This document shows positions 5,729 through 60,817 of a stretch of DNA of 64,000 bases, one piece after another. The notes below the pieces were generated by a model that did not search any database, was not told the DNA's origin, and saw only the letters and a program-made list of their open reading frames with translations. A program made the translations under genes and the position numbers. Within the stretch, counting starts at the first letter, position 1; each line of letters begins with the position of its first letter. Source of the DNA: Prevotellaceae bacterium (GTDB lineage: Bacteria > Bacteroidota > Bacteroidia > Bacteroidales > Paludibacteraceae); the NCBI GenBank assembly GCA_031271005.1, contig JAISWT010000111.1, positions 3,428 to 67,427 on the forward strand. The letters run 5' to 3'.

Positions 5729-5819
5729 AATTTCAAAGTGAAGTCCAACGACAAATAAGCAATTTTCAGGAGTTCCCTGATTAACTTAACACTGATTACC
5801 CTTAATACCTGTATTTTGT

Positions 5820-18681: not shown

Positions 18682-18721
18682 GGAGACTTCTAAAAATCAG
18701 ATTATTTTCAGGAGTTCCCTG
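18682..18721. repeat. Dispersed ~40-bp motif, copy i
   Basis: ggagacttctaaaaatcagattattttcaggagttccctg. Its left half recurs at 18960, 20779 and 28766 (rc), and its right half at 5763-5779. Confidence 0.75.
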
Positions 18722-18959: not shown

Positions 18960-18997
18960 GGGAACTTCTAAAAATCAGATTATTTCATTAGTTCTCT
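18960..18997. repeat. Dispersed motif, copy ii
   Basis: gggaacttctaaaaatcagattatttcattagttctct. Confidence 0.7.
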
Positions 18998-19779: not shown

Positions 19780-19882
19780 TGTTAGTAGTTGTTAGTTGTT
19801 AGTTGCTAATTGCTAATTACTAATTGCTAATTGCTACTTGCTACTTGCTAATTGCTAATTGCCACTTGCTAATTGCTAATTG
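19780..19882. repeat. Tandem heptamer arrays (GTTAGTT, then TTGCTAA/TTGCTAC x ~11)
   Basis: Read directly from the sequence. Confidence 0.85.
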
Positions 19883-24269: not shown

Positions 24270-24815
24270 ATGAATAAAACATCTTACGAATTTGACGAGG
24301 TAATAAAAACTTGCCGCTCTGTTTTTGAGAAAAAACTGGTTGATTATGGGACTTCGTGGCGCATCATGCGTCCGCAATCGGTTACCGACCAGATATTTAT
24401 CAAGGCGAGCCGCATTCGCAGCATCCAAACAAAAGGCATGCAGCGCGTTGCCGAAGATATTAGAGCCGAACTGATTGCCATTGTGAATTACGGAATTATA
24501 GGGCTTATACAACTTGAATGCGGATTTGCAGACACAGCAAAGGATATGAGCAGCGCCCGCGCTTTGACCTTATATAATAAGTACGCCGAGGCAGCGAAAA
24601 AACTTATGCTTGATAAAAACCACGACTACGACGAGGCATGGCGGCTAATGAGAATTGAATCGTACATTGATGTGATTTTAATGAAAATTAACCGTACAAA
24701 AGAAATAGAAAGCAACGCCGGACAAACGCTGGTGTCCGAAGGAATTGACGCTAATTATTACGATATGATAAATTATGCAGTATTTGCACTGATAAGAAGC
24801 GATATTAGTGGTTAG
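24270..24815 (+). CDS. DUF1599 domain protein
   Basis: 181 aa from the ATG at 24270 (the track ORF begins at an upstream TTG). YGTSWRIMRP.S.TDQIFIKA.RIRSIQ and NHDYDEAWR.MR resemble the Bacteroidota DUF1599 family. The TAG stop lies in the first TAGTGGT repeat unit. Confidence 0.7.
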   Translation: MNKTSYEFDEVIKTCRSVFEKKLVDYGTSWRIMRPQSVTDQIFIKASRIRSIQTKGMQRVAEDIRAELIAIVNYGIIGLIQLECGFADTAKDMSSARALTLYNKYAEAAKKLMLDKNHDYDEAWRLMRIESYIDVILMKINRTKEIESNAGQTLVSEGIDANYYDMINYAVFALIRSDISG

Positions 24816-25121
24816 TGGTTAGTGGTTAGTGGTTAGTGGTTAGTGGTTAGTGGTTAATTAAGAAATGAAGAAATGAAGAAATGAAGAAATGAAGAAATGA
24901 AGAAATGAAGAAATGATGAAATTGAGAATTGAGAATTGAGAATTATATTCAATTACGAATTAAAAATTACGAATTACGATTTGCTAATTGCTAATTGCTA
25001 ATTGCTAATTGATTAAAGTTTCTAACTATACCTAACTAAACTCTAAACTCTAAACTCTAATAACTGCTATCTGCTATCTGCTATCTGCTATCTGCTATCT
25101 GCTAATTGCTAATTATTAATT
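24806..25121 (+). repeat. Composite short-tandem-repeat cassette, full copy 1
   Basis: Ordered modules: (TAGTGGT)x7, (AAGAAATG)x7, (GAGAATT)x3, CGAATTA-like bits, (TTGCTAA)x4, CTAAC-rich linker, (AAACTCT)x3, (CTGCTAT)x5, (TTGCTAA)x2. The cassette fills the whole DUF1599-ABC spacer. Confidence 0.95.
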
Positions 25122-38736: not shown

Positions 38737-38958
38737 CAGATAGCAGATATTAGAGTTTAGAGTTTAGAGTTTAGTTAGGAATTGTTAGGAATTGTTAGGA
38801 ATTGTTAGGAATAGTTAGATGTTGTTTTAATTCTCAATTCTCAATTCTTAATTCTCAATTCTTAATTCTCAATTCTTAATTCTCAATTCTTAATTTCTTA
38901 ATTTCTTAATTTCTTAATTTCTTAATTAACTATTAATCACTAATCACTAATCACTAAT
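38726..38958 (-). repeat. Composite short-tandem-repeat cassette, full copy 2 (inverted)
   Basis: The reverse complement reads (AGTGATT)x3, (TTAAGAAA)x4, (AAGAATT/GAGAATT)x9, aaaacaacatctaactatt, (CCTAACAATT)x3, (AAACTCT)x3, CTGCTAT, TTGCTAA. This is the same order and the same junctions as copies 1 and 3. Confidence 0.95.
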
Positions 38959-45975: not shown

Positions 45976-47055
45976 ATGAATGGGAAATCAAAATGGAAAG
46001 CCAATTTCCGAATTGTTTTTTTCTTACTGCTTTTGTTCCCAAAAATTAAATTAAAATTTGACATGAACGATTTGGTAGACGAAACAGGAAACGCAGGTGC
46101 AACCTGCACAAACAATACAAACGGAGCAAAACTGCTCTACAAGTCGCAAACGCGCTTTATGTTTCATTCGCACGTAAAAATCAAATTGCCTGCATTCTAC
46201 CCCGACAATTTGTTTGATTCACTGTTCGCTGTTGCCGAAAATTTTGATAAAAATTACAACACATTTTCCAAAAATTCGTTTTTAGATAAAATCAACAAAA
46301 ATTCAGGCAGTTTTACTGACGTTGATACTCAAACAGTTGACTTGTTGCAAAGCGTAATTGCGCTTTGCAACAATTTTGATGGCGAGTATGACATTACGGT
46401 TATGCCGCTACTGCGAGCGTTGGGATTTTTCGAGTCTGAAATCAGCCCGCACCGCAGCAACCGCAGAATGCAGAACTCGTTGGAACAGAGCAAAAAACTT
46501 GTGGATTTCAGGCGCATTGAAATTCGCGGCAATTTTGTAAAAACTGGCAAGCAACAGGAAATTGTAAGTGGCTCATTTCTAAAAGGTTATGCTGTTGATA
46601 AGGTGATTGCGCAAATGAGAGCAGCCGGCATTTCCGACGGCATGGTAAATGCCGGTGGCAGCACACTGTTTGCATTGGCAAACCAGCAGCACAAAAACTG
46701 GCAAATTATTGTTAATCACCCTGCTACAAACAAAAATTTGTTCAATTTAAATATTAAAAATCAATGTTTTTCCACCTCGGCGCAAAATATTATTTTCGTT
46801 GAAAACGGCAATCGTAAGTTCGGACATATTATTAATCCAAAAACGGGATTGCCTTCTGAAAATCAGCAAGTTGGAATAATCTCAAACGATTGTCTCACGG
46901 GCGACGTGTTTTCAACCGCACTGATGAATTTCACCGGAAAAACATTTTTGAAAAAGATAAAACTCTTACGTCAAAACTTTGATATTGAAGGATTTATGCT
47001 CGACAATGATGACAAGTTGTTTTTTTCTGACGGCTTTAAAAATTATTTTTGCTAA
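45976..47055 (+). CDS. apbE: FAD:protein FMN transferase (ApbE family)
   Basis: 359 aa. ApbE-like blocks ..YDITVMPL...GF.., SGSFLKGYAVDKV, ..NAGGS.., GHIINPKTG.P and ..TGDVFSTALM. The start choice (45976 versus an internal ATG) is uncertain. Confidence 0.8.
   Translation: MNGKSKWKANFRIVFFLLLLFPKIKLKFDMNDLVDETGNAGATCTNNTNGAKLLYKSQTRFMFHSHVKIKLPAFYPDNLFDSLFAVAENFDKNYNTFSKNSFLDKINKNSGSFTDVDTQTVDLLQSVIALCNNFDGEYDITVMPLLRALGFFESEISPHRSNRRMQNSLEQSKKLVDFRRIEIRGNFVKTGKQQEIVSGSFLKGYAVDKVIAQMRAAGISDGMVNAGGSTLFALANQQHKNWQIIVNHPATNKNLFNLNIKNQCFSTSAQNIIFVENGNRKFGHIINPKTGLPSENQQVGIISNDCLTGDVFSTALMNFTGKTFLKKIKLLRQNFDIEGFMLDNDDKLFFSDGFKNYFC
47044..47051 (+). promoter_or_regulatory. Candidate -7 promoter box (TATTTTTG) inside the last apbE codons
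   Basis: TAnnTTTG match 95 bp upstream of the rdgB ATG, placing the whole left inverted repeat in the rdgB 5' leader. Confidence 0.4.
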
Positions 47056-47145
47056 ATGAAACGAACACGATTAACAAAACACACAAGGTTATGATTATGT
47101 TGTCGTGTGAGTTCCATCTGACCTTAAAAAATAAAATATAAACAG
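47056..47145 (+). repeat. 90-bp inverted repeat, left copy (abuts the rdgB start codon)
   Basis: atgaaacgaacacgattaacaaaacacacaaggttatgattatgttgtcgtgtgagttccatctgaccttaaaaaataaaatataaacag. Compared with the reverse complement of 49437-49530 it has 1 substitution and a 4-nt indel. Confidence 0.95.
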
Positions 47146-47724
47146 ATGAAACAGATTATTTTTGCTACCGGCAATGCACACAAACTCGAAGAAGCATGCG
47201 CCATTTTGAAGGATTTTAAAATATTGAGTTTGAATCACTTGGGCTTCACCGAAGACATTCCCGAAACTGCCGATACCTTACAAGGGAATGCTTTGCTCAA
47301 GGCGCGTTTCATACACCAAAAATACGGTATGGATTGCTTTTCAGATGATACGGGGCTCGAAATTGCTGCGCTCGGCGGTGCGCCCGGAGTACATTCGGCG
47401 CGGTTTGCAGGCGAGCATAAAAGCCCGATTGACAACATGCGAAAAGTGTTGCAACTGCTTGAGAACCAGCAAAACCGCAGAGCGCAATTTAGAACCGTTA
47501 TCGCACTTATTTTCAACGAAAAAGAATATATTTTTGAAGGAAAAACACAAGGAACAATAATCACTGAACCGCGTGGGTCAGACGGTTTTGGCTACGACCC
47601 TGTTTTTATGCCGGACGGCTACGACAAAAGTTTTGCGCAACTTGCTGCAAACAAAAAAAACGCAATCAGTCATCGCGCTATGGCATTGAAAAAAATGGCA
47701 TATTTTTTATTGAAAAATAAATAA
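47146..47724 (+). CDS. rdgB: Non-canonical purine NTP pyrophosphatase (RdgB/HAM1 family)
   Basis: 192 aa. FATGNAHKLEE, DDTGLEI.AL.G.PGV.SAR, GFGYDPVF and ISHR motifs. Confidence 0.9.
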   Translation: MKQIIFATGNAHKLEEACAILKDFKILSLNHLGFTEDIPETADTLQGNALLKARFIHQKYGMDCFSDDTGLEIAALGGAPGVHSARFAGEHKSPIDNMRKVLQLLENQQNRRAQFRTVIALIFNEKEYIFEGKTQGTIITEPRGSDGFGYDPVFMPDGYDKSFAQLAANKKNAISHRAMALKKMAYFLLKNK

Positions 47725-47780
47725 AAATACTCCTGCCAATATTAAAATAACAGAATATTATTACAAATGGCTGTTTTTTT

Positions 47781-48008
47781 CAATCGCCATATCCATACGA
47801 AAAACAATACTTTTGGCGAGAACATGATGGAGGTTCTCGCCATATCTATACAAAAAACAGTACTTTTGGCGAGAACCTAATAGAGGTTTTCGCCACATCT
47901 ATATAAAAAACAATACTTTTGGCGAGAACCTGATAGAGGTTCTCGCCATATCTATATAAAAAACAGTACTTCTGGCGAGAACCTAATGGAGGTTTTCGCC
48001 ACATCTTA
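47781..48008. repeat. 53-bp tandem repeat with embedded hairpin (3 full units plus partial units at both ends)
   Basis: Units start at 47815, 47868, 47921 and 47974. Unit sequence is ggcgagaacc-N8-ggttctcgcc atatctatacaaaaaacagtactttt. The array lies between the convergent 3' ends of rdgB and the ATPase gene. Confidence 0.92.
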
Positions 48009-48014
48009 TTTTCT

Positions 48015-49436
48015 TTACTTGAACAAATCTGCTAATGTAATTTCCTTTTGTATTGTGCCGTAATACTTGTTTTTTGTTACTCCATAAGTAGTTAGCATGA
48101 GCAAATGTACTGCTTTCTGCGTCTTTGTTTCTGAAATAAGACTGGCAACTTTGTTGCGCAATTTCTCATCATATTCTTTGTTGATAGTGAATTTTGATTT
48201 TGAAAATTTTATTTCGCATAAATCTGTCAAACCGTCTTTGCGGTCGATAATCAGGTCAATTTGTGCAGCGGGCTTTGTACCTTTGCTATTTCGCCACGAG
48301 GCAACCGATGCTTGTATGCCCGCGATACCAAGCGCTTCTTTTACTTCCCTAATGTGCTGCAATACAAGAATTTCAAAGGCAAAACCAGCCCAAGCATTTT
48401 GTTGCGGCGTGTTTTCCGAGTTAGTCCAAAAATGTGTGTCGTTGTACTCGTTGTTCGACAGATATTTGAAATAAAACAGTGTGAACGAGTCAATTAATTG
48501 ATATAAAATATCACGTTTTCTTTTTCCGAACGAAGAATATGAGCGAATAAAACCACTGTTTTCCAAATTTTCCAGCATTGTTGTAAAGCCACCGCCCGTA
48601 CTGATTTTTGTTGCTTTTGATATTTCCTGTCGTGTAAGTCCTTTGGATTTTTTGCTCAATGCCTCAACAATTTTCATATACTCTTCGGAATCTCTGAAAA
48701 GCGACTTGTACAGATTTTTAAATTCGCTTTTTAATTCTGCAAACTTATCAAAAAACAGAAAATCAATATTTTGCGACAAACTCAATTCTTTTTTAATTTT
48801 ACTTAAATAAAACGGTATGCCGCCCAAAATCATATAACATTCGGCAATTTGATATTGTGAGAACTTTATTTTTTGTGATTTTAAATACTTCTCACACTCT
48901 TTCAGTGTGAACGGTTCGAGAAAAATAGAGGCAGTGATTCGATTATGCAATCCGCCGTGATTGTTTATTAACTTATTGATTATCCACGAGGTAGCAGAGC
49001 CGCAAACGATTAAAAAAACGTCTTTTCGGGCGCAAGCCCATCCGTTCCAAAAATGCTCTAACGCCGCGAGAAAACGGGAGCAATGCGTATCTAACCAGGG
49101 AATCTCGTCAATAAAAATGATTTTGCGCTTTTCTTTTGACTTAGAAATGACTGTTATCAGGTCTTCAAAGGCGTAAATCCACGACTTGGCGACAGAAAAT
49201 TCTCCCAAACCAACTTTGTTAAGCGAAATAGTGAAATTGGTTAGTTGTTCTTTGATGTTAGAATTTGCCAATCCTGCCATATCGAAGAAAAATTTTTCTT
49301 TGAATGTCTCCCGTATTAAAAAAGTTTTGCCTACGCGCCTTCTGCCGTAAACCGCCGCAAATTCAGGCTTGGAAGAGTTGTATAAATCAACTAACCGCCT
49401 CTGTTCCTGTACTCTACCAATGATATTTGATTTCAT
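48015..49436 (-). CDS. AAA-type ATP-binding protein (archaeal-ATPase-like N-terminal domain plus DUF234-like C-terminal region)
   Basis: 473 aa. Walker A YGRRRVGKTF and Walker B IIFIDEIPWL. The overall layout is typical of the widespread PF01637/DUF234 ATPases. Confidence 0.8.
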   Translation of the reverse strand: MKSNIIGRVQEQRRLVDLYNSSKPEFAAVYGRRRVGKTFLIRETFKEKFFFDMAGLANSNIKEQLTNFTISLNKVGLGEFSVAKSWIYAFEDLITVISKSKEKRKIIFIDEIPWLDTHCSRFLAALEHFWNGWACARKDVFLIVCGSATSWIINKLINNHGGLHNRITASIFLEPFTLKECEKYLKSQKIKFSQYQIAECYMILGGIPFYLSKIKKELSLSQNIDFLFFDKFAELKSEFKNLYKSLFRDSEEYMKIVEALSKKSKGLTRQEISKATKISTGGGFTTMLENLENSGFIRSYSSFGKRKRDILYQLIDSFTLFYFKYLSNNEYNDTHFWTNSENTPQQNAWAGFAFEILVLQHIREVKEALGIAGIQASVASWRNSKGTKPAAQIDLIIDRKDGLTDLCEIKFSKSKFTINKEYDEKLRNKVASLISETKTQKAVHLLMLTTYGVTKNKYYGTIQKEITLADLFK

Positions 49437-49530
49437 CTGTTTGTTTATATTTTATTTTTTAAGGTCAGATGGAACTCACACGACAACATAATCATAACCT
49501 TGTGTGTTTTGTTAACCGTGTTCGTTTCAT
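49437..49530 (-). repeat. 90-bp inverted repeat, right copy (abuts the ATPase start codon)
   Basis: Reverse complement of the left copy, with G for A at one position and an extra aaca before the start codon. Confidence 0.95.
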
Positions 49531-49554
49531 AAGATAAGGATTTAAACTTCGCTA

Positions 49555-49562
49555 CAAAGTTA
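49555..49562 (-). promoter_or_regulatory. Candidate -7 promoter box (TAACTTTG on minus strand)
   Basis: TAnnTTTG match 119 bp upstream of the ATPase start, just outside the right inverted repeat. Confidence 0.4.
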
Positions 49563-49645
49563 CAAAAAATATTTGTTTTGGCGAAATCTACCCATAGGTT
49601 CTCGCCATATCTATACAAAAAACAGTACTTTTGGCGAGAACCTCT
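49563..49645. repeat. Additional 53-bp repeat units (about 1.5 copies) upstream of the ATPase gene
   Basis: ggcgaaatctacccataggttctcgccatatctatacaaaaaacagtacttttggcgagaacc, in the same orientation as the 47781-48008 array. Confidence 0.85.
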
Positions 49646-49905
49646 CAATTTGCACAAACTTAAAAATATGGAATTTTGTGCATGGGAAACAGTAAGCGCC
49701 TGAAAATCAATTTTTTTTTTCAAAATCTTTGAAATTTCTTTTTACAGTACGCAAACAAGATTAAAAAAAATGTAAGTCGCTGATTACAGGAAATTTGTAA
49801 TGAGACAAGTTACAATATGAGTTAAAATGAACTTGCAAAAATTGAACGAAAAAATAAAAAAAACTGTTTTTTTTTGAAAAAAAATAGAACACATTAAATT
49901 TTTTT

Positions 49906-60561: not shown

Positions 60562-60794
60562 TAGTGATTAATTAAGAAATGAAGAAATGAATGAATTAAG
60601 AAATTGAGAATTGAGAATTGAAACAAGATCTAACCATACCTAACTATTTCTAACAATTTCTAACAGTTTCTAACAATTTCTAACTACACCTAACTAAACT
60701 CTAAACTCTAAACTCTAAACTCTAAACTCTAAACTCTAATATCTGCTAATTGCTATCTGCTATCTGCTAATTGCTAATTGCTAATTGCTAATTG
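60562..60794 (+). repeat. Composite short-tandem-repeat cassette, full copy 3
   Basis: tagtgatta, (AAGAAATG)x2+, (GAGAATT)x2, gaaacaagatctaaccatacctaactat, (TTCTAACAAT)x4, cctaactaa, (ACTCTAA)x6, then CTGCTAT/TTGCTAA x8. It lies in a divergent promoter region. Confidence 0.95.
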
Positions 60795-60817
60795 AAAACT
60801 GTGGTCTGTTTTTGAAA

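Follow-up and report, generated by a model that had tools for sequence, protein, structure and literature searches.

A dispersed gene-less repeat, probably mobile and inserted at ATGAAA start codons, forms the inverted arms at rdgB and an ATPase gene in a Prevotellaceae bacterium

Introduction

In a 64,000-nt stretch of DNA from a Prevotellaceae bacterium (GenBank assembly GCA_031271005.1, contig JAISWT010000111.1, positions 3,428 to 67,427 of the forward strand; hereafter the window), the start codons of two convergent genes, rdgB and an ATPase gene, directly follow inverted copies of one and the same sequence of about 90 nt. How did two functionally unrelated genes come to share their immediate upstream sequence? 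A repeat search of the window recovered inverted arms of 89 nt (47056-47144 and 49442-49530) that are 99% complementary and spaced 2297 nt apart, the chance expectation in the window for a 33-nt piece of inverted repeat being 0.00. An alignment of all genomic copies showed that the right copy departs from the left by A15G and by an extra AAAC/AACA near its 3' end, and so bore out the single substitution and 4-nt indel reported in the original prediction, which had been made from the sequence of this locus. That prediction had offered three explanations: a shared regulatory leader coupling the two genes, an invertible segment whose flipping exchanges their promoters, and two insertions of a MITE-like element (MITE, miniature inverted-repeat transposable element). 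Our analysis favours a variant of the last, in which each arm is, with good probability, an independent insertion of a gene-less, non-autonomous mobile repeat of about 90 nt that targets start codons.

Results

The repeat is dispersed in near-identical copies

The window's own genome (G000; 2.8 Mb in 245 contigs) contained more than 40 matches to the 90-mer, of which 36 were full-length copies and about six were partial. Full copies lay 0-5 changes from the consensus, with most changes private to single copies; only one subfamily was present, and several copies, among them the left copy of the window, were exact matches to the consensus. This star-like pattern points to a recent burst, and because the left copy is identical to the consensus, the insertion at rdgB appears to be very recent. 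The motif ATGAAACGAACACG, from the 5' end of the element, occurred 36 times in the genome, and one full copy carried AAGAAAC in place of ATGAAAC.

The partial copies on contigs C194 and C161 were considered as parts of a longer, autonomous element. This candidate was rejected, as a nested MITE bearing terminal inverted repeats (TIRs) accounts for the split of what is a single copy (G000:C194:8481-8634 and G000:C161:5700-5963, where the contigs break). The nested element belongs to a separate, true MITE family of about 113 nt, which has TIRs GGGAACTCCTAAAAA...TTTTTAGGAGTTCCC and is present in at least 69 near-full copies spread over 78 contigs; ends related to these TIRs also occur in the window at 5763-5777, 18705-18719 and 18960-18974. 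Two gene-less copies of the start-codon repeat, G000:C40:39465-39554 and G000:C100:2580-2668, had near-identical flanks on both sides, reading ...aatcattgataatgaaatat before the element and atgaaaattYaccccgtgattcgca... after it. Here either another repeat contains the element or the whole composite was duplicated.

Copies abut ATGAA(A/T) in a single orientation

All 36 full copies ran at once into ATGAA(A/T), always in the same orientation. The base before the element was T in 31 of the 36, compared with 33% of ordinary gene starts and 23% of intergenic sites that read ATGAA(A/T). An open reading frame (ORF) of at least 100 codons began at the adjoining ATG in 24 of the 36 copies, and the remaining 12 preceded no gene. 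Site classes were counted after in silico removal of the elements, on a crude ORF-based gene map. Occupied ATGAA(A/T) sites made up 21 of 658 first-ATG gene starts, 11 of 1270 intergenic sites and 4 of 3305 sites inside ORFs, which corresponds to an odds ratio of 3.8 for starts against intergenic sites (p=2.7e-4) and of 10 for starts against all other sites (p=8e-11). The four copies assigned to ORF interiors probably represent mis-called starts. Part of the excess at starts must stem from the loss of disruptive insertions, and the rest may reflect an extended target, T-ATGAAA+A (hyphens in motifs mark a boundary or junction).

By Pfam, the genes hit encode RdgB, two ATPase_2 proteins, a PKD-domain protein, an SDR dehydrogenase, CotH and an FGE-sulfatase-domain protein; further ones, from reading their sequences, presumably encode a penicillin-binding protein, a histidine ammonia-lyase, an S41 peptidase and CdsA. 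No recombinase was found among the genes downstream of the copies. Thus, these genes are functionally unrelated and do not constitute a regulon.

One copy was informative about what happens to the target. On contig C107 the element begins with ATGAAAC at its 5' end and is followed at its 3' end by ATGAAT AAA AGA (MNKRK...), and the orthologues of the downstream gene in two genomes of the same genus (G001 and G002; 79-80% protein identity) begin with ATGAAT AAA AAA and lack the element. The 5' and 3' hexamers of this copy differ and the 3' hexamer matches the orthologues; therefore, the 5' ATGAAA belongs to the element and the 3' hexamer belongs to the gene. Read in this way, this single informative site suggests that insertion occurs immediately 5' of the target and without target duplication. 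The combination of a 5' ATGAAAC with a 3' ATGAAT, ATGAAG, ATGACA or ATGATA recurred in other genomes. The rdgB orthologues of G001 (ATGGAA) and G002 (ATGAGA) use the same start codon and are likewise free of the element; their upstream synteny differs, so that they do not provide an exact empty site.

A covarying hairpin and an invariant block make up the element

From 5' to 3', the element consists of ATGAAAC, a hairpin (P1), the invariant block GTTCCATCTGAC, an A-rich tract of about 22 nt and AAACAG, followed by the flanking ATGAAA (coordinates in Table 1). P1 is closed by AAC/GTT, above which there is usually a tandem G.A/A.G internal loop or else Watson-Crick pairs, and then a variable stem and loop. 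The interrupted stem that had been noticed at this locus is real, and it extends outward by the GA/GA internal loop and the AAC/GTT pairs. Covariation was assessed on 60 diverse family copies anchored at both ends. The basal eight pairs of P1 were paired in 75% of cells, against 24-35% with slid partners, and 56 cells showed double changes, against 18.9 +/- 3.8 in shuffles, with none of 500 shuffles reaching 56. RNAalifold run on a MAFFT alignment returned only a second, invariant helix (P2).

The invariant block is a putative internal guide: the joined ends of the element, CAG-ATGAAAC, are complementary to GTTCCATCTG over 10 positions, with a single A.C mismatch that becomes G.T on the other strand. 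Variants of the block were rare and looked like decay, and the complementarity was read from sequence alone. P2 pairs CATCTG with CAGATG; it was predicted in all five folds as well as by RNAalifold, and it would lie over the start codon of rdgB in the RNA. Both P2 and the guide are invariant partly through the ascertainment of the copies, and their support comes from conservation and complementarity. The hairpin folded slightly better on the gene-sense strand, a weak energy asymmetry, whereas the duplex between guide and junction was better on the antisense strand, where G.T takes the place of A.C.

No TIRs were found: when the 5' end (ATGAAACGAACACG/ATGAAACGAAC) was compared with the 3' end in reverse complement (CTGTTTAT/CTGTTTATATTT), there was neither complementarity nor shared sequence. 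The upstream open reading frame (uORF) that opens at the 5' core varied in length from 4 to 31 codons, 3 of 69 copies had no in-frame stop inside the element, and no uORF peptide was conserved across the family. In positions 46900-49750, none of the Rfam 15 covariance models matched the element at E<=10; the sole gathering-level Rfam match in the window was a tRNA.

Related elements occur across Bacteroidota and differ between close relatives

Full-length copies with 74-78% identity were present in other genera and families of the order, and no copy was found in the two same-genus genomes, G001 and G002. The motif GTTCCATCTGAC-N18-30-ACAGATGA matched at least 118 loci in species-representative genomes, nearly all of them Bacteroidota. 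The matches listed included Paludibacter, Labilibaculum, Flavobacteriaceae, Chitinophagaceae, Sphingobacteriaceae, Saprospiraceae and others, plus one uncultured Ignavibacteriales genome; about three quarters of the copies listed preceded a long ORF, and some formed tandem arrays sharing ATGAAAC. Of 401 genomes of the order, 43 carried the motif, while a reversed control gave 0 matches, and within one genus the number of motif copies ranged from 0 to 62.

A single orthologous Labilibaculum gene (MKRYISAYFEDEE...) was preceded by 1, 2 or 3 tandem units in three species, with flanks 88-92% identical, and each extra unit joined exactly at ATGAAA. The counts were two units in L. manganireducens, one in L. 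euxinus and three in Labilibaculum sp. K2S (L043:7230-7700, L245 and L244). The stacked units came from different subfamilies, and these genomes contained dozens of copies each, so that the cultured strains would serve well as experimental carriers. A literature search found no description of the element; the sole match to TTTCAT was an unrelated probe sequence.

Four enzyme families do not track the element

Candidate mobilising enzymes were sought in the element-rich genomes G000, G247, G084, G119, G330 and G193 (for three of the four families also in G424 and G425) and in the element-free relatives G353, G216, G326, G001 and G002. None of the four families, namely Y1, IntI, Ssn-type GIY-YIG and IS110, separated element-rich from element-free genomes. 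The Y1 HUH transposase (PF01797) was present in six of six element-rich genomes tested and also in four of five element-free ones. No consistent element motif was found in the flanks of the Y1 genes, and the Y1 protein of G000 was 22-38% identical to those of seven other matching loci, from rich and free genomes alike. The only intact Y1 gene of G000, which is IS200-like/RAYT-like (RAYT, REP-associated tyrosine transposase; REP, repetitive extragenic palindrome), lies at C37:4947-5393 (locus L139, G000:C37:3459-6800); it is preceded by about six tandem units of some 50 nt with the palindrome CCCCCAGATAAATCTGGGGG or a close variant, an arrangement that is REPtron-like and unrelated to the start-codon repeat, no copy of which was found within this 3.3-kb locus.

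No integron integrase IntI (TIGR02249) reached the 265-bit cut-off in 13 genomes. The best match scored 128 bits, a score to be expected of Xer and other non-integron tyrosine recombinases, and sub-cut-off tyrosine-recombinase matches occurred in all 13 genomes tested and in all 14 control genomes. G000 and five further element-rich genomes had no small stand-alone GIY-YIG gene; genes encoding about 100 aa were found only in G424, G425 and the element-free G353, and the GIY-YIG matches of G000 were UvrC (628 aa) and one weak match of 205 aa only. The IS110 DEDD transposase (PF01548) had no match in the element-rich genomes G000, G084, G119, G193 and G425, drafts that could hide a copy. Finally, no copy with tnpA and no autonomous copy was found, and no ORF ended at the guide block among 23 family loci without a proximal 5' core. 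We consider a Y1 enzyme acting in trans possible but unsupported, and an integron integrase, an Ssn-type GIY-YIG nuclease or an IS110 transposase unlikely as the mover.

The rdgB/ATPase locus

The features of the locus are collected in Table 1. Pfam confirmed the identity of rdgB and the ATPase assignment of the gene that starts at 49436, although the DUF234 domain once attributed to the latter had no Pfam match at E<=0.001. Upstream of the left copy lies ApbE, the stop codon of which would have adjoined the rdgB start (TAA-ATG) before the element inserted. The candidate promoter boxes described outside the two copies are indeed present: TATTTTTG and TAACTTTG both fit TAnnTTTG, the Bacteroidetes -7 promoter consensus, and are candidate promoters by sequence match only. 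Also as described, no recombinase gene is adjacent to the locus. When RdgB was used as a query against a metagenome collection for relatives of the locus, the nearest had only 62% protein identity.

Table 1. Positions of the two element copies, their parts and neighbouring features in the window
Feature	Position	Strand	Remarks
Left element copy	47056..47145	+	90 nt; identical to the genome consensus
Right element copy	49437..49530	-	94 nt; differs from the consensus by A15G and a 4-nt duplication
Element 5' core ATGAAAC	47056..47062	+	Element's own; also opens a 12-codon uORF, not conserved
Hairpin P1	47060..47113	+	Predicted fold: AAC / GA.GA internal loop / ACACGA-TT-AACA ... TGTT-G-TCGTGT / GTT
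Invariant block GTTCCATCTGAC, putative internal guide	47111..47122	+	Complementary to the joined ends CAG-ATGAAAC
Helix P2	47115..47148	+	Predicted; CATCTG (47115-47120) with CAGATG; encloses the A-rich tract 47121-47142
rdgB/Ham1 gene	47146..47724	+	Pfam E 6e-65; its ATGAAA is the proposed target of the left copy
ATPase_2/AAA gene	48015..49436	-	PF01637, E 1e-14; its ATGAAA (49436-49431) is the proposed target of the right copy
apbE TAA stop	47053..47055	+	Directly abuts the left element copy
TATTTTTG, candidate Bacteroidetes -7 box	47044..47051	+	Inside the apbE 3' end, 4 nt upstream of the left copy
TAACTTTG, candidate -7 box	49555..49562	-	24 nt upstream of the right copy
Tandem array of a 53-nt unit with palindrome TGGCGAGAACC..GGTTCTCGCCA	47784..48006	.	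4.2 copies; separate from the element

Two further kinds of repeat were observed here. The 53-nt array sits just past the stop of the ATPase gene, and about two more units lie at 49549-49654, upstream of the ATPase promoter region, so that the gene and its element copy are bracketed by direct repeats of this unit, for which no match was found in the genome outside the window's contig. The ATPase family is multi-copy and occurs at contig ends in the same-genus genome G001, and the ATPase gene within the direct repeats may be a mobile or duplicated cassette. Heptanucleotide arrays are abundant: Tandem Repeats Finder reported 758 period-7 arrays covering about 33 kb of the 2.8-Mb genome, and three or four unit families predominate among them (with units like TTGCTAA, AATTCTC and TTAGAGT). 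Examples in the window lie at 19789-19882, 24805-25111, 38750-38958 and 60622-60801, and they recall the short tandemly repeated repetitive (STRR) sequences of cyanobacteria.

Discussion

The reading that we favour, two independent insertions of a mobile repeat, draws on the dispersal of the repeat, its boundaries, its target and orientation, its recent burst, the covariation of its hairpin, and its presence and absence between relatives. The element would insert in one orientation immediately 5' of ATGAA(A/T), preferentially at T-ATGAAA, which is most often a gene's start codon and second codon. A gene hit in this way would keep its start codon and acquire the A-rich tract of the element as its new leader. 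On this account, ATGAAA opened both rdgB and the ATPase gene, each of which took an insertion of its own; since the two genes converge, their element copies make up an inverted repeat, and the shared leader would be a by-product of insertion. As for the mechanism, we propose that the element moves as folded single-stranded DNA, that the invariant block at the foot of the hairpin pairs with the joined ends and the target in the 'peel and paste' manner of IS200/IS605, and that an enzyme supplied in trans carries out the reaction.

Could the repeat instead be primarily a cis-regulatory RNA leader, such as a riboregulator, a thermosensor or a uORF device, in which P2 hides the start codon and through which the two genes are co-regulated? 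All folds and the alifold consensus do place the P2 pairs CATCTG/CAGATG over the AUG, the A-rich tract resembles the initiation regions of Bacteroidetes that lack a Shine-Dalgarno sequence, folding of the hairpin slightly favours the sense strand, and candidate -7 boxes lie just outside both copies. However, a third of the copies (12 of 36) precede no gene, the downstream genes are functionally unrelated, copy number varies from 0 to 62 among congeners, units stack in tandem, the uORF is not conserved and Rfam holds no match. Moreover, near-identity within the genome together with about 75% identity between genera is the mark of proliferation and not of a conserved regulon. Both mRNAs would indeed carry the same leader, as originally proposed, but the specific coupling of the two genes did not hold, as about 22 other genes share this leader; the two mini-ORFs noted in it exist, the 5' one with no peptide conserved across the family. 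We therefore regard a mainly regulatory role as quite improbable. An incidental effect of the element on translation is nevertheless likely, and for rdgB and the ATPase gene it could plausibly arise from P2 lying over the AUG, from the A-rich tract or from the uORF.

That 47146-49436 is an invertible segment, whose flipping would swap the outside promoters of rdgB and the ATPase gene, is suggested by the inverted arms themselves, 2.3 kb apart and with candidate -7 boxes beyond each; 89 bp at 99% identity is long enough for RecA-dependent inversion. Yet two hits of a 40-copy repeat on convergent ATGAAA starts explain the arrangement, there is no adjacent recombinase gene, the assembly has a single orientation with no alternative junction, and the genome encodes no integron integrase, its only tyrosine-recombinase matches being sub-cut-off ones common to all tested and control genomes. 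We judge a switch of this kind very unlikely; homologous recombination between the two copies could occasionally invert the 2.3-kb segment, and nothing points to a designed switch. Equally hard to credit is a classical MITE that a DDE transposase moves and for which ATGAAA would be the 6-bp target-site duplication. Such an element would account for the ATGAAA on both sides of nearly every copy and for a size and copy number that are MITE-like, but the ends share nothing that could serve as TIRs (ATGAAACGAAC against the reverse complement of the 3' end, CTGTTTAT), the C107 hexamers differ (ATGAAA against ATGAAT) with the 3' one being the orthologues' own start, and the genuine TIR-bearing MITE of the same genome looks quite different. 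Of the third original explanation, insertion of a repeat with about 40 genomic copies thus stands, whereas a MITE in the strict sense does not; and although the repeat is high-copy and dispersed, its placement relative to start codons is not random.

A different route for the same insertions would be a tyrosine recombinase that acts on an attC-like site folded from a single strand, either a host Xer-type enzyme (as for IMEX) or another integrase, in place of an HUH enzyme. Integron attC sites are recognised as folded single strands and are laid out as R box, spacer, L box and variable loop, with boxes R''/R' of RYYYAAC / GTTRRRY and crossover at G-TT. The element shows a comparable design, in which a 7-bp box, ATGAAAC/GTTCCAT, closes the hairpin, with a small internal loop after it and then a variable stem conserved as structure; as in attC, it is the short terminal boxes that are conserved. 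The constant core at the left junction and the target-derived core at the right likewise match the topology of attC x attI recombination, and tyrosine-recombinase matches, all below the integron-integrase cut-off, exist in every genome tested. Against this, the boxes are off consensus apart from the AAC/GTT closing pairs, which the element does have, the element boundary lies before ATG and not at the G-TT crossover, and the copies are dispersed, with no cassette ORF, no arrays and no IntI gene, none of the element-rich genomes having an integron integrase above the family cut-off. Being present in every genome, the recombinase matches do not distinguish element-rich from element-free ones. 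On balance we consider this route unlikely.

Among known systems, the element appears to work most like single-strand elements of the IS200/IS605 type. These elements and the palindrome-associated transposable elements (PATEs), mobilised by Y1 HUH TnpA as in IS608 and ISDra2, have no TIRs, make no duplication, enter in a fixed orientation beside a short AT-rich sequence such as TTAC or TTGAT, and carry subterminal imperfect hairpins at both ends, each with a short guide 5' of its foot that is complementary to the cleavage sites (PMC3597680, together with general background). The start-codon repeat similarly lacks TIRs and, at the informative site, target duplication. It is inserted in strict orientation by a short AT-rich target, on the antisense strand 3' of (A/T)TTCAT, and it has a subterminal hairpin, with a block complementary to both ends 2 nt 5' of the hairpin foot on the antisense strand. 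It differs in that a single hairpin serves both ends instead of one per end, in that its guide complementarity extends to as many as 10 nt and not 4, and in that no copy carrying tnpA was found, Y1 genes also being present in element-free relatives with flanks devoid of element motifs. In its genomic behaviour the element may be compared with mycobacterial interspersed repetitive units (MIRUs), which are units of 40-100 bp in Actinobacteria, often in variable tandem arrays. They too are small dispersed repeats in one orientation at gene junctions that overlap stop and start signals and leave the flanking genes expressed; they have no sequence relation to the element, and to our knowledge neither a conserved hairpin-plus-guide architecture nor an ATGAAA target has been reported for them.

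Other small repeats resemble the element in part. Correia elements (CREE/NEMIS), RUP, ERIC and Rickettsia palindromic elements are, like it, small non-coding mobile repeats near or inside genes that can change expression. Correia elements, however, have TIRs and a TA duplication, Rickettsia palindromic elements insert in frame within coding sequences, and we know of no report of start-codon targeting for any of these families. REPs, bacterial interspersed mosaic elements (BIMEs) and REPINs are short high-copy hairpin repeats with lineage-specific bursts, thought to be mobilised in trans by the domesticated Y1 HUH protein RAYT (PMC8266576, PMC3479197). The element is also a short high-copy hairpin repeat with a lineage-specific burst, but REPs cluster at the RAYT gene, lie mostly after genes and have no start-codon target, and it is the palindrome CCCCCAGATAAATCTGGGGG, not the start-codon repeat, that flanks the one Y1 gene of G000. 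Dispersed hairpin repeats, NTS/SRM, are also paired with the small site-specific single-strand nucleases Ssn of the GIY-YIG family (Chenal et al. 2025, PMC11893778). SRM repeats, however, are palindromes of 20-50 nt with another consensus, and GIY-YIG genes do not track the element. Thus, the element did not show the defining features of MITE, REP/RAYT, attC/IntI, Ssn/SRM or IS110 systems.

Several points weigh against our reading of the locus. The excess at starts over intergenic sites is only about 4-fold on the crude ORF map, and it could arise in part from purifying selection or from T-ATGAAA and an A-rich context being commoner at real starts. The lack of target duplication was read from one young copy and from diverged orthologues (about 80% protein identity); a post-insertion change of AAA to AAT at C107 is conceivable, though it would have to have recreated the ancestral codon. 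Presence and absence come from diverged relatives. Movement as folded single-stranded DNA is deduced from complementarity and conservation only, the two indicators of which strand is used conflict with each other, and no mobilising enzyme was found among the four families tested. Tentatively, and with somewhat less than even confidence, we suggest that the repeat belongs to a previously undescribed class: a gene-less element of about 90 nt that would find gene starts (T-ATGAAA) through an internal sequence complementary to its own joined ends and to the target, insert without duplication and rebuild a working start, by means of an enzyme outside the families tested, perhaps one that hosts carry ubiquitously or one from a new transposase family.

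If the favoured reading holds, homing to start codons with replacement of the leader, by which the gene is not killed, would be an unusual, gene-sparing strategy for a genomic parasite. Bacteroidota initiate translation without Shine-Dalgarno pairing; by rewriting the 5' untranslated regions of unrelated genes by the dozen, the element would have set up a natural experiment in the leader requirements of this phylum. Should the target be chosen by pairing with the internal guide, it would in principle be reprogrammable, the property that drew interest to IS200/IS605 and bridge-RNA systems as tools. Such repeats also break short-read assemblies, as in the 245 contigs here, the look-alike "conserved leaders" that they create can pass for riboswitches or regulons, and inverted copies, as at the rdgB/ATPase locus, can pass for invertible switches.

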